In this document: positions 25,849-64,000 of the stretch, piece after piece
Layout: each line of letters begins with the position of its first letter
How positions within the stretch are numbered: the first letter of the stretch is position 1
Program-made: the position numbers and the translations under genes
Assembly (NCBI GenBank): GCA_017504785.1
Contig: JAFVQL010000010.1
Coordinates: 25,165-89,164 of the forward strand
Direction: 5' to 3'
DNA: 64,000 nt
Origin: Clostridia bacterium
GTDB taxonomy: Bacteria > Bacillota > Clostridia > Oscillospirales > CAG-272
The notes under the pieces: generated by a model
What the model saw: the letters and a program-made list of their open reading frames with translations, nothing else
Told to the model about the DNA's origin: nothing
The model's database searches: none

Positions 25849-25990
25849 AGCACTATCCTTCATTTTGCGCCGCAACGAAGGCGGCTTCCTTCCTAACAAA
25901 AAATACAAAGCGAAAGCGCGTTTTGCGTTTCTTTCTCCTGTATTATAGCAAAGGTAAAATGAAAAAATTGTCATATGACGGAAAAGAAAA

Positions 25991-26380
25991 TTATTTTTCA
26001 ACATCCTCCTTATTTTTCTTTATCGAAGCCCCGCGTTGGGCTTCCAGAAGATAAAGCCTGCGAAGAATGTTCAGCATCACCTCGCGCTTTTTCACCTTAT
26101 ACGTTTTTTCGCTCACGGTGAAGCGGCTTTTGGCATACCCGCGCTTTGCGCCGATCTCCTCGATGTATCCGAGCGCATCCTCTTCCCCATCGCAAAGCTC
26201 GCGCGCCGCCGTGAAGATCCTGCGATTGAGATACTCATACTCCATACGCACGCGCAAGGGCGCATCCCCCTCTTTGATCGCGCTTTCGCGGCGAAAATAA
26301 TCCGCGCAAAGCGCCGTTGCCAGCCGATCGGCACTTTCGGGTATGCAAGCGCCGTCAAGACTTTCTTCCTTATTATACAT
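25991..26380 (-). CDS. Small protein resembling phage late-gene activators (RinA/ArpU-like, tentative)
   Basis: 129 aa with a strong RBS GGAGGAGG and an 8-nt overlap with the upstream ORF. The N-terminal LCADYFRR and the C-terminal SRFTVSEKTYKVKKREVMLNILRRLYLL resemble, by eye, the ELCDYPNY ... ISDRTAHRIKRKIISRLAEEL pattern of RinA-type regulators. No search was run. Confidence 0.4.
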   Translation of the reverse strand: MYNKEESLDGACIPESADRLATALCADYFRRESAIKEGDAPLRVRMEYEYLNRRIFTAARELCDGEEDALGYIEEIGAKRGYAKSRFTVSEKTYKVKKREVMLNILRRLYLLEAQRGASIKKNKEDVEK

Positions 26381-26678
26381 TTAAAACACCTCCTCCGACG
26401 GTACAGGACAGCTCCGTCGCAAGCAGTATCAGCTTCTCCTCAAGCAGGGCAAGATCCCTTCGTGCGGCCGCCACCTGTCGCGTCATGCGCGAAAGCGAGC
26501 GCTCCGTGATCGGCGCCTCCCCCAAAAACAGCATGGGAGCAACGAGCTCCCGAACGTTGAGCCGCACGTTCGCACTGCGGCTGTGATGCACCACGGTATG
26601 AATCTCCTTCTCAAGAGGAAAAAGCGAACCGAAAAATTCGCCGTCTTCATACGCAACCCATTCCGTAGGCAATGACAA
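26373..26678 (-). CDS. Hypothetical protein (101 aa), first gene of the repressor-divergent operon
   Basis: TTG start next to AAAGGAGAGA. It is transcribed from the operator-bearing minus-strand promoter. I recognised no motif. Confidence 0.55.
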   Translation of the reverse strand: MSLPTEWVAYEDGEFFGSLFPLEKEIHTVVHHSRSANVRLNVRELVAPMLFLGEAPITERSLSRMTRQVAAARRDLALLEEKLILLATELSCTVGGGVLNV

Positions 26679-26730
26679 TCTCTCCTTTCGTCACGTTTTT
26701 ATGTAACATTTGGCAAAGCAGTAACCTGTT

Positions 26731-26838
26731 ACGTGACTATAATAACATAGAATAAAGTCACTTGTCAAGCGAATTTTGTCGTTTTTCTCATTTTTTTCAA
26801 AAAAATCTATTGCATATTAAGTGACTTTATGGTAATAT
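26731..26838. promoter_or_regulatory. Divergent promoter pair with repeated operator AAGTGACTTTAT (CI/Cro-type switch region)
   Basis: Plus strand: TTGCAT (26810-26815), 17-nt spacer, TAATAT (26833-26838), with AAGTGACTTTAT at 26819-26830 inside the spacer. Minus strand: TTGACA (26768..26763) is followed immediately by AGTGACTTTAT (operator 26763..26752), then TATTAT (26744..26739). A third, 9/12 copy ACGTGACTATAA sits at 26731-26742 over the minus -10. The core AAGT-N-ACTT is itself palindromic. Confidence 0.65.
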
Positions 26839-26900
26839 AATGATATAGAAAAAAAGGCATCACAATATGCGATGCCCGAAAAAGAAAAGAGCGTGACAAA

Positions 26901-27512
26901 ATGATTTCGACAGAACTAAAGGCAAGGCGCAAGGCACTCGGGCTTACGCTGGAGGAGCTTGCGGAGCGCATCGGCACGAGCAAGCAAACCATTCACAGAT
27001 ACGAAAACGGACAGATCTCCAACATCCCCCCGGAGAAGGTGGAGGCGCTTGCGACTGCGCTTGAAACCACCCCCGCCGCACTCATGGGATGGGAGGGCGA
27101 AGCGGAGAATTTTAGGGAGATCCCTTCAAAGCGGCTTCCCCTCCTTGGGCGCATCGCGTGCGGACAGCCGATCTATGCCGCCAGCGAATACGGGAGCTTT
27201 TGCACGCCGGGGGGAGATATCGATGCGGATTTCTGCCTCGCCGCCAGCGGAGATTCCATGATCGGTGCGCGCATTTTTGACGGCGACATCGTTTTTATCC
27301 GCGCGCAGGACATGGTGGAAAACGGAGAGATCGCCGCCGTCGTGATCGAGGATGAGGCGACCTTAAAGCGCGTGTATTTCTACCCTGAAAAAAGCAAGCT
27401 GATCCTCTCGCCCGAGAATCCCAAATACGAGCCTTTGGTGTTCATCGGAGAAGAGCTGAATGCAGTTAAAATTCTTGGAAAAGCGGTGGCATATCAAAGT
27501 CGCCTGCTTTAA
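26901..27512 (+). CDS. XRE-family HTH repressor with a C-terminal S24 (LexA/CI/UmuD-type) autopeptidase domain
   Basis: 203 aa. The HTH is LTLEELAERIGTSKQTIHRYENG. The cleavage-site region is LLGRIACGQP, Cys-Gly as in UmuD. The catalytic Ser lies in ASGDSM and the catalytic Lys in EATLKRV. Confidence 0.88.
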   Translation: MISTELKARRKALGLTLEELAERIGTSKQTIHRYENGQISNIPPEKVEALATALETTPAALMGWEGEAENFREIPSKRLPLLGRIACGQPIYAASEYGSFCTPGGDIDADFCLAASGDSMIGARIFDGDIVFIRAQDMVENGEIAAVVIEDEATLKRVYFYPEKSKLILSPENPKYEPLVFIGEELNAVKILGKAVAYQSRLL

Positions 27513-57633: not shown

Positions 57634-57666
57634 GCCCACCGAGCACTCCTCGGTGGGCTTTTTTTG
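57634..57666 (+). terminator. Terminator after the ABC-F gene (left boundary of the phage-like region)
   Basis: Stem GCCCACCGAG / CTCGGTGGGC followed by TTTTTTT. Confidence 0.88.
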
Positions 57667-57800
57667 TTCGCCTTGCACAAGGAAAAAGTCACCTCGCGGG
57701 TGATCTTTGGAGGGCAGGTATACTTACGGGCGAAAAAAACTTTGCTATACTAATGGCACGAGAGCGAAGGACTCTCGAATACGAAAGAAAGGAGAACTCC

Positions 57801-58136
57801 GTGAAAGCAAGAAAAAAGAGCTACGCGAAGGATCTGCCGCGCAGACTCTACACCTTCTTTATTGGCTATGACGACGAAAGGAGCGCCCCCAGCCTTCAAA
57901 AATTCGCCAGAGCCAACGGCTTTACGACCGAGGAGCTGCTCACCTTCCGAAGGCACGGCGACTTTGAGCGCGCACTCCGCGAATGCAATGAAATTCGCAG
58001 GGATTACCTGATAGACAGAGGATTGACCAAGCGGTTTGACGCATCCTTCGTCAAATACCTTCTGGACGGCGAGGCTTCCGAGCAGCAGAGCGAGGAGGAC
58101 TCCTCTCTTTCGGTGACGCTCGAGGTGCTCCCATGA
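57801..58136 (+). CDS. Terminase small subunit (putative)
   Basis: ORF 57753..58136. I prefer GTG 57801 (VKARKKSYAKDL), which has AAAGGAGAA 6 nt upstream. The HTH-like stretch is SLQKFARANGFTTEELLTF. It overlaps the terL start by 4 nt. Confidence 0.65.
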   Translation: MKARKKSYAKDLPRRLYTFFIGYDDERSAPSLQKFARANGFTTEELLTFRRHGDFERALRECNEIRRDYLIDRGLTKRFDASFVKYLLDGEASEQQSEEDSSLSVTLEVLP

Positions 58137-59497
58137 AGCTGCATCTCACGGTCACGAAAAAGCAAAAGGCCTTCATGGATGCCGATGCCACCGAGGTTCT
58201 CTTCGGCGGCGCGGCGGGCGGCGGAAAATCCTACGGCCAGCTGGTGGACGCGCTGATCGTCGCACTTCGCTATCCCGGCTCCAAGCAGCTGATCCTACGG
58301 CGCAGCTTTGCGGAGCTTGAAAAATCTCTGATCCGAACGTCACTTGCACTCTTTCCGAGAAAGATCTACCGCTTCAATCAGTCCACCCACGTCGGGCGAT
58401 TTCACAACGGCTCCTGCCTTGACTTCGGGTACTGTGCGGCGGAAAACGACGTATACCAGTATCAGAGCGCGGAATATGACGTCGTTCGCTTCGACGAGCT
58501 GACCCATTTCACCGAGGCACAGTATCTGTATCTCATCTCCCGCGTGCGCGGCGCAAACGCCTTTCCCAAGCAGATCAAATCCTCCACCAACCCGGGCGGC
58601 GTTGGGCACGGATGGGTCAAGGCGCGGTTCGTCGATCCCGCACCGCCGAGCACTCCCTTCACGGGCAGGGACGGAATGAAACGCATCTTTCTTCCCTCTC
58701 TGCTCTCGGACAACCGCTTTTTAAGCGAGGGCGATCCAAGCTACAAAGAGCGCCTGCTCGCTCTCCCCGAGCGGGAGAGAAAAGCGCTTCTGCACGGTGA
58801 CTGGAATATCTTTGACGGGCAGTATTTTTCGGAATTTTCCACGGCAAAGCACACCTGTTCCCCCTTCGAGATTCCAAATTCATGGAGAAAATGGCGCACG
58901 GTGGACTACGGACTTGACCGCCTCGCCTGCCTCTGGATCGCCGTTGACCCCGAGGGGCGCGCCTACGTTTACCGCGAATTCTGTGCTTCGGATCTGCCGA
59001 TCAAGGAGGCGGCAGACGCCATTCTTTCCCACACGCCGAAAAACGAAGAGATCTACGCTACCTTGGCGCCGCCCGATCTTTTCAGCCGCAGTCAGGAAAG
59101 CGGAAAAAGCAAGGCAAGCCTTTTCGCCTCCTACGGCGTGCCGTTCACGAAATGCTCCAACAACCGAGAGGCGGGCTGGCTCTCGGTGAAGGACCTTCTG
59201 CGCGAAAGGAACGGCAAGCCCTCTCTTTCCTTTTTCTCGCATTGCACGGAGCTGATCCGATGCCTGCCCGCCTTGCAGGTCGATAAGCGCCGCCCCAGCG
59301 ACTGCGCGACCGAGCCGCACGATATCACCCACGCCCCCGATGCCCTGCGCGGCTTCGCCGTTTCCTTTGCAAGGCCCGCGCCCATAAAGAGCACCGCGAG
59401 CGGCCGCGTGTGGAGCGCGGATATGTGGGAGGATTATTTTGCCGCGGACGAGGAAGGAAAGCAATACCTAAAACGCAAATACGGAGAACCCCTATGA
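58133..59497 (+). CDS. Terminase large subunit
   Basis: 454 aa. Walker A-like FGGAAGGGKSYG, Walker B VVRFDELTHF, and a C-terminal RNaseH-like nuclease region (VDYGL...DAL). Confidence 0.88.
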   Translation: MKLHLTVTKKQKAFMDADATEVLFGGAAGGGKSYGQLVDALIVALRYPGSKQLILRRSFAELEKSLIRTSLALFPRKIYRFNQSTHVGRFHNGSCLDFGYCAAENDVYQYQSAEYDVVRFDELTHFTEAQYLYLISRVRGANAFPKQIKSSTNPGGVGHGWVKARFVDPAPPSTPFTGRDGMKRIFLPSLLSDNRFLSEGDPSYKERLLALPERERKALLHGDWNIFDGQYFSEFSTAKHTCSPFEIPNSWRKWRTVDYGLDRLACLWIAVDPEGRAYVYREFCASDLPIKEAADAILSHTPKNEEIYATLAPPDLFSRSQESGKSKASLFASYGVPFTKCSNNREAGWLSVKDLLRERNGKPSLSFFSHCTELIRCLPALQVDKRRPSDCATEPHDITHAPDALRGFAVSFARPAPIKSTASGRVWSADMWEDYFAADEEGKQYLKRKYGEPL

Positions 59498-61263
59498 CAC
59501 AAAACGAAAACGCATCTCAGCGGCTTTCCTACTTTACATCTCTTTATGAAAAAAGCAAGAACGCCGCGCAAAGCGCGCTTGCGCTTTACGATCGGCACAT
59601 GCGCCAGTACCGCGGCAGTGCCGAGATCGACGGATCGACCGAGAAGGCCGTCACCGTCCGCAACATCACCTACGAAATGATCGAAGGCCAGGTATCCTCG
59701 CACATTCCGCCGCCCAAGGTGGACCCCACGGCTTACAGTGAAGAAAAGGTCCGCCTCGCGCAATCGGTGGAAAGACTGCTCGTCGCCGTGCGCGAAAAGC
59801 TCCCCTACGAGCAGATGAACGATCTCGACGAGCGCTTTTGCTATATCTACGGCGGAAGCGTTTGGTTCGCGGAATGGGACAGCCGCGCGGGCGTCGGCAA
59901 CAAGATCGGCGGCGTGACGCTGCATTGCCTATCCCCCAAGGACTTCATTCCCCAGCCCGGCGCACGCTCCGTGGAGGATATGGATTACTGCTTTCTTCGC
60001 TTCGACACCACGAAGGCAGAGCTGATACGCAAGTACGGCGTTAGCGAAGAATCCCTTTCTCTTGCCGAGCGAGAATACGACAGCGACGCCTACGAGGGGG
60101 ATGCCGACGAGGGCGCGACGGTGATCCTCTGCTTCTATCGCGACGAGAATGGAAGGATCGGCGAATACGCCTTTTCAGGCGAGCTTACGCTGACCGACAT
60201 TCCCGATTACTACGCGCGAAAAAGACGGATCTGCACCGCTTGCGGAGGCGAGGAGCAAAATTGCCTTTGCGAGCATCCGCGCTTCACGCTTGAAAATCAG
60301 AACGAGGAGGGCCTGCATCTGCACACTCTCCCCGACGGCAAGCAGGTATTCGCGCCCGCACGCGATGCAAAGAGCCATCTTTATATCCCCTATTACACGC
60401 CTAAGCGTTTCCCCATCGTCATCCGAAAAAACACCTCTCTTGAGGGAAGCCTTTTCGGTGCATCCGACTGCGAGGTGATCCGACCGCAGCAGCAGGCGAT
60501 CAACAAGATCGAATCCCGCATTCTGCAAAAGCTTCTGCGCGCCGGCGTTACCCCCGTCGTGCCCGAGGATGCGACCATTACGCTCAACAACTCGGTCTTC
60601 GGCCAGCTGATCAAGATGAAGCCCGGAGAAAGCGCGGCACAGTACGGCAAGGTGGATACCACGCCCGACATATCCCAGGATATTGCCGAGGCATCCCGTC
60701 TTTACGACCATGCCAAGCGCATTCTCGGTATTTCCGACGCGCTCGTCGGCATCGACAACGCAAAAAACGAATCGGGCTATGCAAGAAAGCTGCAGATCTC
60801 GCAGGCAACGGGACGGCTCGAATCCAAGCGAAAGATGAAGTATACCGCCTATGCGGAGCTGGATCGCCTGATCTTTGAGTATCACCTCGCCTTCGCGGAC
60901 GAGCCGCGAAGGATCTCTTACAGAGACGCCTACGGCCGCCTTCACAACGCGACCTTCAACCGCTACGATTTTATCGCCCCGGACGAAACGGACGGCTCGT
61001 TTTATTATGACGACGATTACCTTTTCTCCGTGGATCTGAACGGCGGCGCGGAGGCACAGCGCGAGCTTCTTTGGGAAAAGAACCTTGAAAACCTCAAAAG
61101 CGGCGCACTGGGCGATCCGACACTCGCCGTTACGCTGCTGCGCTATTGGCAATGCCAGGAGCGCGCGCATTACCCGTATGCACGAGAAAACGTGGAATAC
61201 TTCCAGAGCGCAATCAACGAGCAAACGGAGGCGAAGGCTAAAGCAGAGGAGGTGATCGTGTGA
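59494..61263 (+). CDS. Portal protein (putative)
   Basis: ORF 59410..61263. I moved the start to ATG 59494 (MTQNENASQRLSYF), which forms an ATGA overlap with the terL stop. Its size (589 aa) and position fit a portal. It contains a CxxC...CxC insertion. Confidence 0.7.
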   Translation: MTQNENASQRLSYFTSLYEKSKNAAQSALALYDRHMRQYRGSAEIDGSTEKAVTVRNITYEMIEGQVSSHIPPPKVDPTAYSEEKVRLAQSVERLLVAVREKLPYEQMNDLDERFCYIYGGSVWFAEWDSRAGVGNKIGGVTLHCLSPKDFIPQPGARSVEDMDYCFLRFDTTKAELIRKYGVSEESLSLAEREYDSDAYEGDADEGATVILCFYRDENGRIGEYAFSGELTLTDIPDYYARKRRICTACGGEEQNCLCEHPRFTLENQNEEGLHLHTLPDGKQVFAPARDAKSHLYIPYYTPKRFPIVIRKNTSLEGSLFGASDCEVIRPQQQAINKIESRILQKLLRAGVTPVVPEDATITLNNSVFGQLIKMKPGESAAQYGKVDTTPDISQDIAEASRLYDHAKRILGISDALVGIDNAKNESGYARKLQISQATGRLESKRKMKYTAYAELDRLIFEYHLAFADEPRRISYRDAYGRLHNATFNRYDFIAPDETDGSFYYDDDYLFSVDLNGGAEAQRELLWEKNLENLKSGALGDPTLAVTLLRYWQCQERAHYPYARENVEYFQSAINEQTEAKAKAEEVIV

Positions 61264-62555: not shown

Positions 62556-63611
62556 ATGTCAACTATTATTTACTCCAAGTCGGCAGGAACCAACAATGCC
62601 GCAATCGGAAAGCTGGAAACGCCCATCAAGATGGTGATCGAGCATGAAAGCGATATTTTGACCAAGAAGGGCGGCATCCGCGACTGGCTTTTCAACGTGG
62701 AAAGCAGCATGCGCTTCGGCGAGACCATCGTCGGCCAAAATGAATTCAACGTCTTTGCCGCAACGCCCGAGGGCGACGCCGCACCGCGCGATACGCTGAC
62801 CGAGACCTACCGCAAGTTCATCGAGCACATCCAGTTCATGAAGGAGTTTGTGATCACGGCAGAGATGATGGAGGATGCAAGCTACGGCGTTGCCGCCGAT
62901 GCGAAAAGACGCGCGGAGAACTTCACCCGCGCTTATTACAAGACCATGCACAAGATCTGCGAATACGCCCTTTCGATGGGCACGGCGGCAAGCGGCACCT
63001 TCGCCGGCGCGACGCTGGATCTGACCGCGCCCGACAATCTCCCCCTCTTCTCCTCGGCGCATAAGTACGGAACGGACACCGCCACCCAGTCCAACTTCTT
63101 CTACGGCGATATTTTCGCATCCGGAAGCACCACGCGCACGCCCTCGACGGCGGCCTTTGAGGCGGCACTCTCCGAGCTTTCGGTGAAGCTTCGCAACATG
63201 AAGGACGAAAACGGCGAGGCACTCGGCTATACCGCCGACACCCTCATTCTGCCCGGCAACCGTCCCGCGGCGGAAATGATCGCAAAGAAGGTATGCGGCT
63301 CGGAGGGCGCACTTGGCAACGGCTACAACGATATCAACCTTCAGTTCGGCAACTGGAACATCGTGATCCTGCCCGGCTGGCAGACCGCGGACGACCGCGT
63401 GATGATCATGTCCTCGGAGGCGAATAAGAACCTCTCGGGCAATATGTTCTTTAACCGCGTGCCCCTCTCGGTTTCCAACTGGGTGGACCACCACACCGGC
63501 AACTATCTTTGGGCAGGCCGCTGCCGCTTCGGCGTAGGCTTTGGCAGCTACAAGCACATTCTGATGGCCGTAGACTCTGCAAGCGCCGTGGAGAACGCGA
63601 CCGCGCTCTGA
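62556..63611 (+). CDS. Major capsid protein (putative)
   Basis: 351 aa. The call rests on position after the scaffold gene, on size, and on RBS GAAAGGAAAA. It is based on synteny rather than a recognised motif. Confidence 0.65.
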   Translation: MSTIIYSKSAGTNNAAIGKLETPIKMVIEHESDILTKKGGIRDWLFNVESSMRFGETIVGQNEFNVFAATPEGDAAPRDTLTETYRKFIEHIQFMKEFVITAEMMEDASYGVAADAKRRAENFTRAYYKTMHKICEYALSMGTAASGTFAGATLDLTAPDNLPLFSSAHKYGTDTATQSNFFYGDIFASGSTTRTPSTAAFEAALSELSVKLRNMKDENGEALGYTADTLILPGNRPAAEMIAKKVCGSEGALGNGYNDINLQFGNWNIVILPGWQTADDRVMIMSSEANKNLSGNMFFNRVPLSVSNWVDHHTGNYLWAGRCRFGVGFGSYKHILMAVDSASAVENATAL

Positions 63612-63617
63612 TAAAGA

Positions 63618-64000
63618 ATGACCTATAAGCAGCTATACGCCGAGGTGGCGGCACTTGGCTTTGAGGGCGAGATCGAGAATCAGCCTGCCCTGCTCTTCTC
63701 TGCCAACAGAGCCTTGAAAAGCCTTGCCGCCCTCATGCCCGCCTACGGGACCGTCACGCTGATACAGCGCGCGTTTACCCCGCTTTCGCACATTCCCGAG
63801 CTGAATTATGTCCCCGGAAAGGAGATCACGGTGCCGCTTCGCGGCGCCGTATTCAGCTTCAAGTTCTCGGGCGCGGGAACGGTGACGCTAAAGGAGCGGC
63901 ACAGAGTCTCTCCGTTCTTCATGGACAGCCCCTATACGGAATTTCGCAAATACCTGCTCGACGGCGAGGGCGAGCTGGTCCTTTCGGGCAACATTGCCTT
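63618..64000 (+). CDS. Phage structural-module ORF, 3' end cut by window edge
   Basis: ATG 63618 lies 7 nt after the capsid stop and the frame stays open to the window end (MTYKQLYAEVAALGFEGEIENQPALLF...). Confidence 0.5.
   Translation, partial: MTYKQLYAEVAALGFEGEIENQPALLFSANRALKSLAALMPAYGTVTLIQRAFTPLSHIPELNYVPGKEITVPLRGAVFSFKFSGAGTVTLKERHRVSPFFMDSPYTEFRKYLLDGEGELVLSGNIA

Follow-up and report, generated by a model that had tools for sequence, protein, structure and literature searches.

The 64,000-nt stretch of DNA analysed here (hereafter the window; Clostridia bacterium, GCA_017504785.1, contig JAFVQL010000010.1, positions 25,165 to 89,164) raises the question of what a phage-type genetic switch controls when no other phage genes adjoin it. 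The switch consists of a gene for a repressor of the XRE-S24 type (Rep) and, divergent from it, a two-gene operon for proteins of 101 and 129 amino acids (p101 and p129), and a cluster of phage head-tail genes begins 31 kb away. The first-pass annotation of the locus had proposed an SOS-type switch split off from a distant cluster resembling a gene transfer agent (GTA), and the computational evidence assembled below supports such a split. We propose, with a probability of about 0.6, that the locus is a two-tier switch controlling a domesticated, GTA-like phage cluster. Loci and contigs used for comparison are labelled with L-numbers (L001 etc.).

Rep is encoded on the plus strand (26901..27512) and comprises 203 amino acids. 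Residues 6-59 match the Pfam helix-turn-helix (HTH) family HTH_3 (E 3.8e-16), and Peptidase_S24 is complete at residues 80-196 (profile positions 1-116 of 116, E 2.2e-23), while among the PHROGs the protein matches phrog_4 best (“transcriptional repressor”, 1.6e-37). All three motifs on which the initial reading as an XRE+S24 repressor was based, RIACGQP, ASGDSM and ATLKRV, are found in the protein; in an alignment of 17 orthologues the CG of (A/S)CG, the Ser of GDSM and the Lys of TLKR are invariant, and together with the Pfam matches they bear that reading out. Rep has what marks the members of the S24 family, namely an N-terminal DNA-binding domain followed by a full S24 domain, a Ser/Lys dyad with the catalytic Ser within GDSM and the Lys within TLKR, and a Cys-Gly site in the linker, where Cys85-Gly86 is the putative cleavage site. 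The evidence supports Rep as a putatively autocleavable S24 repressor within a multi-operator divergent switch. Two other assignments were considered and rejected. Rep is not a canonical LexA: it scores 81.5 bits against TIGR00498, below the cut-off of 110.95, the match covers residues 74-197 only, and its N-terminal domain is of the XRE type, not winged-helix. Nor is the locus a toxin-antitoxin system or an anti-phage defence island, as its PADLOC matches are to generic HTH only.

The divergent region between rep and the operon (26679-26900) is 222 bp long and was initially described as holding two good promoters. The one on the minus strand, which serves the p101-p129 operon (26739..26768), stands: TTGACA (26768-26763) and a TG-extended TATTAT (26744-26739) are separated by 18 nt, score 11/12 in the promoter scan and are kept across loci. 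The rep promoter on the plus strand (26810..26838), read from the sequence as TTGCAT (26810-15), a 17-nt spacer and TAATAT (26833-38) with a TG, is weaker; it scores 7/12, under the threshold of the scan, but its position and an AAGTGAC half-site are kept in 17 orthologous loci. A hairpin followed by a T-run lies at 26855-26877 on the minus strand, inside the 5′ untranslated region of rep and upstream of the operon promoter, and is oriented like the p101-p129 operon. Similar elements occur in several orthologous loci, and the element could shield the operon from read-through from the wecB side.

A 12-mer, AAGTGACTTTAT, had been taken as the operator in the spacers of both promoters. The exact inverted pair was recovered at 26819-30 and, inverted, at 26752-63, but the unit had been delimited wrongly. 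Aligned divergent regions of the orthologous loci give an operator of the form TCAC-N7-GTGA, a 15-bp palindrome, and the 12-mer is the right arm of two such operators, O1 and O3, with flanking bases. O1 (TCACTTGTCAAGCGA, 26758..26772), which has one mismatch to the palindrome in the window, overlaps the -35 of the operon promoter. In all orthologous loci shown it is either exact, TCACTTGACAAGTGA, or has one or two mismatches, and a near-exact copy, TCACTTGACAAGTTA, lies beside a divergent XRE-S24 gene in L093, where p129 is only ~34 % identical. O2 (26722..26736, minus strand TCACGTAACAGGTTA) corresponds to a third operator copy that had been placed over the minus-strand -10; the copy is confirmed, but it lies directly 3′ of the -10, over the transcription start (+1). 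Most of the 17 orthologous loci, and L095 as well, keep its form GTCACGyAACAGGTTAC, which has diverged in L003, L009, L010 and L012. O3 (26810-26824), TTGC-N7-GTGA, has one good half-site, is weak and lies inside the rep promoter. Across most orthologous loci, including relatives with a p129 identity of only 34-50 %, O1 and O2 are both kept.

The same palindrome is found at the start of the head-tail cluster. A further operator, O4 (TCACCTCGCGGGTGA, 57689..57703), is the sole exact TCAC-N7-GTGA in the 64-kb window, where 0.43 copies are expected, and it lies 17 nt upstream of the -35-like element of a predicted late promoter. This promoter (57719..57751, plus strand), recognised by the conservation of its motif and spacing, reads TATACTTAC-N18-TATACT, with a TG-extended -10 and a non-canonical -35 element. 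Its general form, TAyACTTAC-N18-TAnAnT, with a sigma-A-like and often TG-extended -10 and a strict spacing of 18 nt, is kept in seven species-level loci (the window, L031, L032, L049, L052, L081 and L094), and the motif occurs once only in the window and once only in each cluster locus scanned (L025, L031 and L032). Since the -35 element is non-canonical and strictly spaced, the promoter probably needs a dedicated factor. In L031 and L094 the counterparts of O4 (TCACTTATTGCGTGA and TCACTTGATAGGTGA) are again the sole copies, in 21 kb and 13 kb, and again lie 17 nt from TATACTTAC; the arms are invariant and the spacers differ. Furthermore, in L043 and L047, which have more divergent versions of the cluster with a high GC content, one or two operators of the O1/O2 type lie directly before terS and nowhere else in ~16 kb each. 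There, Rep-type operators and a TATAAT-AGTCACGCAACAGG promoter core (L043 1588-1728, L047 416-430) replace the TACTTAC promoter; no rep or p129 gene was found within ~1.9 kb upstream of terS in L043, nor within ~0.7 kb in L047. A sporulation sigma factor (F, G, E or K) was also considered as the reader of the late promoter, by eye against their consensus sequences, and was rejected, because the -10 is of the sigma-A kind and TACTTAC agrees with none of these sequences.

The two genes of the operon have ORFs (open reading frames) that share an 8-nt overlap, ATGTATAA, indicating translational coupling, as had been described. p101 (26373..26678, minus strand) is the first gene; the coupled operon stands with the amendment that p101 probably starts at the second TTG (26672) and has 99 amino acids, because its homologues suggest so. 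It is a helical, fast-evolving partner protein with 11 homologues, none belonging to any family library; it has no Sigma70_r2 or Sigma70_r4 match in Pfam, and its AlphaFold2 model is poor (predicted local distance difference test, pLDDT, 59), with a long C-terminal helix. p129 (25991..26380, minus strand) belongs to an uncharacterised family of four-helix proteins of ~105-130 amino acids and is proposed here as a positive regulator of the late operon. Its 54 close homologues are all unnamed and come from uncultured Clostridia. A profile search of 1.8 billion representatives extended the family to 241 clusters at E<=1e-3, mostly of 105-112 amino acids, with the signature LCxDYxRR ... YLN ... 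DIGxxRGYxxS ... SExTYKxxK ... IAxxLxL, and AlphaFold gives a confident four-helix model (pLDDT 84, core >95). A p101-like partner ORF was found at 19 loci and in the distant L090. The two proteins probably act as a pair, since p101 is always present and a similar ORF overlaps the distant p129 relative in L090.

Neither protein gave anything usable in Pfam, NCBIfam (including RinA and ArpU), PHROGs or PADLOC. When 119 members of the p129 family were compared with PHROGs, 20 matched phrog_11237, of unknown function, and two touched phrog_248, “transcriptional activator” (~0.01). A profile search of PDB sequences with the family returned no regulator and no sigma factor. It did return tobamovirus coat proteins, with ALLGAFDTRNRIIE aligned against ALCxDYxRRxxxI over helices 1-3 (E 7.6e-7 on a tandem-duplicated chain, 0.002-0.02 on single chains); this is probably a spurious similarity between four-helix bundles.

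The phage context of the family is more informative. A distant member, P0209 (33 % identical to p129, E 1e-9), is present on five IMG/VR contigs (L020-L024), in each of which it lies directly upstream of genes for a 187-aa TerS (phrog_3064, E 1.5e-19), a 514-aa TerL and a 657-aa portal protein. The phage portal is 45 % identical to the window portal at 59.4 kb (E 1e-180), and the phage TerL is 40 % identical to the window TerL at 58.1 kb (E 1e-57). On L097, a second contig of phage type, the gene order is the same and follows a block of early genes. The place directly 5′ of terS, comparable to the rinA-terS adjacency in 80alpha, is that of the phage relatives, p129 itself lying 31 kb from terS. 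Because these relatives adjoin homologous terS-terL-portal genes in the classical position of a late regulator, the p129 family appears to be tied specifically to head modules of the window type. The top BFVD matches of the p129 model are phage proteins (TM-score 0.52-0.62), one of which is named “transcriptional activator” (TM-score 0.62, probability 0.99, E 0.4). On these two counts the view that p129 resembles a phage late activator is upheld. The late promoter of the phage relatives has an analogous layout with a different element, TTGCGACyAA. Searches of GenBank phages by tblastn gave no match to p129 or to a distant relative, and scans of IMG/VR with other distant family members found nothing. 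Given the homologous phage portal and terL and the presence of O4 at the promoter, the head module at 57.7 kb is, in silico, the likely target of the switch, as had been supposed.

The following sequence of events would connect these elements. In the off state, Rep dimers on O1 and O2 would silence the p101-p129 operon, Rep would autoregulate its own gene through the weaker O3, and it would also occupy O4, just upstream of the only promoter of the cluster, 31 kb away. Upon induction, a signal, most likely the RecA nucleoprotein filament formed after DNA damage, would elicit self-cleavage of Rep at Cys-Gly through the Ser/Lys dyad and so vacate O1, O2 and O4. p101 and p129 would then be co-produced from their overlapping genes, and p129, probably complexed with p101, would work at the TACTTAC element that stands in for the -35 hexamer. 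RNA polymerase would thereby transcribe the 14.2-kb operon from terS to the membrane-protein genes, and particles might be produced that package DNA.

Several findings weigh against this proposal. The first group concerns p129, which had been placed by eye among the RinA/ArpU-type activators. That placement did not hold: in NCBIfam, p129 matches neither RinA (TIGR01636) nor ArpU (TIGR01637) at E<=1, the sole match being the unrelated UrcA (0.12), and when the profile of the 119 family sequences was aligned with 80alpha RinA by hhalign, the probability was 2.9 % over 23 C-terminal columns, with only the last helix aligned (TVSEKTYKVKKREVMLNILRRLY vs HISDRTAHRIKRKIISRLAEELG). By tblastn, staphylococcal RinA itself came back in only three tiers of identity. 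In Pfam, the 119 family members gave just scattered single matches, none of them to Sigma70_r2, Sigma70_r4 (sigma-70 region 4) or HTH. Foldseek found no PDB match for the p129 model, and none to the solved Q proteins, and the E-values of the BFVD matches are weak (0.4-0.7). The resemblance to RinA seen by eye in the sequences is real, yet it is no evidence of family membership, and since no regulator family was matched, DNA binding by p129 is a proposal only. The second group concerns O4. Four of the more distant cluster loci (L032, L049, L052 and L081) have no O4, and the centre of the operator lies ~60 nt upstream of the inferred start, where activators bind more typically than repressors do, so that Rep might even be an activator at this site. 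The co-occurrence of switch and cluster was checked in three genomes only; the two are on one contig, 31-49 kb apart, in 3/3 genomes where both were located. Finally, the cluster has no recognisable endolysin or endolysin-type domain, so that lysis functions may lie elsewhere, as in operon II of the GTA of Faecalibacterium prausnitzii (FpGTA), and the invariant adjacency of the switch to spoIIA, described below, is unaccounted for by a two-tier switch.

Alternatively, Rep might control the cluster directly through O4 (through O1/O2-type sites elsewhere), and p101 and p129 would not be activators but a Cro-like or antirepressor-like lock, or factors for timing, lysis or packaging. An operator is present at the terS promoter in five lineages, terS of L043 and L047 lies behind a Rep-type operator and a promoter without TACTTAC, and no DNA-binding domain is detectable in p101 or p129. 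However, in the clade of the window the terS promoter has no usable -35, and its conserved, strictly spaced element needs a dedicated factor; moreover, the phage relatives of p129 hold the place of a late activator beside terS, not a place beside the repressor. We consider such direct control, without activation by p101 and p129, unlikely.

A second explanation accepts p129 as the late regulator but assigns it another mode of action, that of a Q-like or GafZ-like antiterminator, with or without p101, loaded at the late promoter instead of recruiting RNA polymerase in the classical way. In the phage relatives, a conserved 15-bp hairpin followed by AUUUUGUUUUU lies in the leader between the late promoter and terS (~6470-6560 in L020-L024, ~2760-2840 in L097), and this apparent terminator hints at antitermination control in the phages. 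The order of regulator, promoter, short terminated leader and late genes mirrors lambda Q-PR'-tR', and the GTA of Caulobacter crescentus (CcGTA) pairs activation with antitermination over a 14-kb cluster (PMC11150451). The chromosomal leader is different: a conserved 5′-leader hairpin, CGAGAG...CTCTCG with a variable loop, follows directly after the inferred start of the terS transcript (57759-57777 in the window, with equivalents in L031 and L094), but because it has no U-run it is not an intrinsic terminator, and a role in stability or as a loading site is a candidate. The p129 model also has no fold match to solved Q proteins, and the non-canonical -35 would still have to be explained. Antitermination is plausible but is given a small chance, and activation at the TACTTAC element is preferred.

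The switch might, on the other hand, be a relic. It was initially called stand-alone and located between spoIIA and wecB; the flanks are correct, being spoIIAA (STAS), spoIIAB and sigF at one end and, at the other, a UDP-GlcNAc 2-epimerase gene, but the term understates a vertically inherited fixture beside spoIIA. Twenty-one chromosomal loci were compared: species-representative genomes supplied 16, a look-up of the exact protein three, and a lineage further removed the other two; their source genomes are all metagenome-assembled and labelled only Clostridia or Eubacteriales, and several come from herbivore guts. The order of Rep (divergent), an ORF of ~100 amino acids, the p129 homologue, spoIIAA, spoIIAB, sigF and groES is the same in 21/21 loci, with members missing only at the cut ends of short contigs, and it holds down to identities of 40 % for p129 and 53 % for SigF. 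The ratio of nonsynonymous to synonymous substitution rates (dN/dS) was measured on one genome pair, the window and GCA_054289005.1, in which dS is 0.8-1.9, with synonymous sites near saturation, and the ORFs are intact. It is 0.076 for Rep, 0.17 for p129 and 0.27 for p101, compared with 0.078 for SpoIIAB and 0.097 for the ABC-F gene to the left of the cluster. Because dN/dS is low despite near-saturated dS, the switch appears to be maintained by selection, and the comparison of these loci indicates that it was not left behind by a prophage but is a fixed part of the chromosome, passed on vertically.

These data bear directly on the notion that switch and head module are unrelated, decaying prophage remnants whose shared motifs match by chance. 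Short motifs of the AAGTCAC type are indeed common, with four found and four expected in the window. However, all ORFs are intact at a dS of ~0.8-1.9, dN/dS is as low as in housekeeping genes, synteny is kept across many species, and the full palindrome is confined to the two regulatory regions, in five lineages. Decay is scarcely credible.

The invariant neighbourhood of spoIIA calls for consideration of its own, as it may reflect either frozen synteny or a real coupling to sporulation. The spacer between p129 and spoIIAA (25942-25990, minus strand, in the window; equivalents in L001-L019) has no evident intrinsic terminator in most species, so that transcripts of the Rep-controlled operon may run on into spoIIA. 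It also contains a conserved TGnTATAAT (25947-25942) and, 21 nt upstream of this, a TTGACA/CGACAA box, an arrangement that we take to resemble Spo0A-dependent promoters such as that of spoIIG. The switch could then serve sporulation or cell-cycle control without any working link to the head module, p101 and p129 forming a damage checkpoint on spoIIA or on sporulation entry in the manner of Sda or YneA. The same-direction adjacency to spoIIAA-spoIIAB-sigF in 21/21 chromosomal loci, with sigF down to 53 % identity, and the lack of an evident intrinsic terminator after p129 in most species speak for such a role. It would leave unexplained, however, both the operator at the terS promoter and the phage homologues beside homologous terS-terL-portal genes; spoIIA has a conserved promoter of its own, and the distant p129 relative in L090 is not adjacent to spoIIA. 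The chance that the switch has this role alone is very slim.

A variant would keep the head module and wire the switch into sporulation, such that the production of GTA-like particles is a developmental branch tied to sporulation entry. This idea draws on the co-directional position of the operon upstream of spoIIA in 21/21 loci, mostly with no evident terminator between them, and on a cluster without a recognisable endolysin. Either transcription would be channelled into the sigma-F operon once Rep is cleaved, or lysis of the mother cell would free the particles. The odds of this arrangement are slim; if it were real, gene exchange in spore-forming gut Clostridia would be linked to sporulation.

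The proposed target cluster itself has the make-up of a GTA. Its first gene encodes a TerS-like protein of 111 amino acids starting from GTG (57801..58136, plus strand, as are all the genes of the cluster), assigned by phrog_3064, “terminase”. Only positions 80-166 of the 175 in this profile are matched and the N-terminal part is absent; the 187-aa phage homologue in L022 matches positions 33-154. By PHROG matches, terL (58133-59497) and an SU10-type portal gene (59494-61263) come next, and genes for proteins of 217, 45 and 152 amino acids lie, by gene order, between the portal gene and that for the major capsid protein (Phage_capsid_4, PHROG major head protein; 62556-63611). The gene for an adaptor (SU10_adaptor) starts within the window, which ends at 64000, and the cluster continues past this point. 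The complete cluster was read from contigs carrying the capsid gene of the window (L025-L030); it comprises 17 genes in 14.2 kb on one strand, the adaptor gene being followed by that for a 904-aa leucine-rich repeat (LRR) protein and then by eight more, the last three of which encode membrane proteins. The LRR protein (L025 11920-14634) has an LRR_5 domain, keeps a length of 901-904 amino acids from species to species and may be a tail or receptor-binding protein. The last three genes (L025 17686-19445) encode proteins of 195 amino acids (an N-terminal transmembrane segment and a coiled coil), 122 amino acids (four transmembrane segments) and 276 amino acids (four transmembrane segments).

The cluster is flanked by the ABC-F gene on the left and by PALP, SecG and deaminase genes on the right. 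Within the 14.2 kb there is no integrase, repressor/lysogeny or replication gene. A complete prophage extending beyond 64 kb, which would have accounted for the head genes, is ruled out by the housekeeping genes that come after the cluster, and the initial description of a head module without an integrase proved correct. The cluster is syntenic in other species, with the same ABC-F left flank, and the identities of its proteins track those of ABC-F. For terL, portal and capsid, dN/dS is 0.075-0.10 at a dS of ~0.9-1.2 in the genome pair used above. The capsid protein has 1750 homologues, and the first 120 clusters are 78-99 % identical and come from contigs of up to 358 kb. Structural genes that lie at a fixed site with no genes for replication, integration or lysogeny, that are inherited vertically and that are under purifying selection are the comparative hallmarks of a GTA, and the cluster shows them. 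Directly before O4, a strong intrinsic terminator follows the ABC-F gene (57634-57658; a 10-bp stem with 8 GC pairs and a T7 run) and separates the cluster promoter from transcription that comes from upstream.

According to a recent report, no route of capsid-mediated DNA mobilisation is commoner in gut Ruminococcaceae, Oscillospiraceae and Christensenellaceae than the GTA-like packaging of host DNA (PMC12946183). If the proposed two-tier switch is correct, it would provide the first regulatory handle on GTA-like particles in Gram-positive gut anaerobes. The locus offers a testable circuit composed of a repressor with its operator, a late promoter, and a new family, also present in gut phages, of small putative positive regulators. 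Searches for the operator and promoter motifs could locate GTA-like clusters and their regulons in genomes, particle production would be inducible on demand, and it could be examined whether gene exchange in the gut is set off by DNA damage or by sporulation. What appears to be new is the combination of an S24 repressor with a previously uncharacterised two-protein positive regulator, as a variant of the known control circuits of GTAs and defective phages. p101 and p129 would then constitute a third, unrelated host control of a domesticated phage, beside GafA/GafYZ and Xre/Xpf.

Among these circuits, switches of the lambda CI/Cro type resemble the present one in their repressors (CI and the LexA-like phage repressors of PHROG 4), which combine an N-terminal HTH with a C-terminal S24 domain, a Ser/Lys dyad and an (Ala/Cys)-Gly site; the site is Cys-Gly in Rep, as it is in UmuD. 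They also share divergent promoters, several graded palindromic operators over -35 and +1, and probable autoregulation. In contrast to them, the window switch has no adjoining Cro-like HTH gene, integrase, excisionase or replication genes, is vertically inherited, and has an extra operator 31 kb off at a structural-gene promoter. PBSX of Bacillus subtilis forms SOS-inducible, non-infectious, phage-derived particles that package host DNA and is governed by an Xre-type repressor and a dedicated positive factor, Xpf. The window system would likewise combine an XRE-type repressor with a dedicated positive factor in a Gram-positive host. However, the PBSX regulators are contiguous with the structural genes, whereas those of the window are 31 kb apart from them; Xpf is of the sigma-70 family, whereas p129 has no sigma domains; and PBSX is myovirus-like and 28 kb long, whereas the window cluster has 14 kb and a podovirus-type portal and adaptor, and Rep has an S24 domain. 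The RinA/ArpU/Ltr-type activators of Firmicute siphophages have a similar size (~105-140 amino acids) and, in phages, the same place directly upstream of terS (80alpha; L022 and L097), and RinA has a similar basic C-terminal helix, S-[DE]-[KR]-T-x-x-[KR]-x-K-R.... Unlike them, p129 is 31 kb from terS, is paired with a second small protein and is unmatched by the hidden Markov models of these families.

FpGTA is a podovirus-like GTA of two operons (10.5 kb and 5.5 kb), with a TerS that has no DNA-binding domain and with no regulator described, and PBSX is named as the other Gram-positive GTA-like element (PMC12946183). By description, FpGTA shares with the window a chromosomal terS-terL-portal-scaffold-capsid order of the short-tailed type, hosts among gut Oscillospirales-like Firmicutes, and the absence of replication and lysogeny genes. 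The window TerS has no N-terminal part of its family profile, and the TerS of FpGTA no obvious DNA-binding domain, a parallel that bears only indirectly on whether the particles would package random host DNA. The two differ in that the window has a single 14.2-kb cluster and in that its hosts are spore-formers from herbivore guts. In the control of CcGTA, RogA is reportedly the repressor. GafY-dependent activation and GafZ-dependent antitermination act there over a 14-kb cluster (PMC11150451). No sequence relationship to the CcGTA regulators was detected, Rep is putatively autocleavable, and the host is a spore-forming Firmicute. The logic of CcGTA control is nevertheless similar to that proposed here, with two small co-encoded proteins that are silenced by a repressor and that switch on a 14-kb cluster elsewhere on the chromosome in a two-tier manner.

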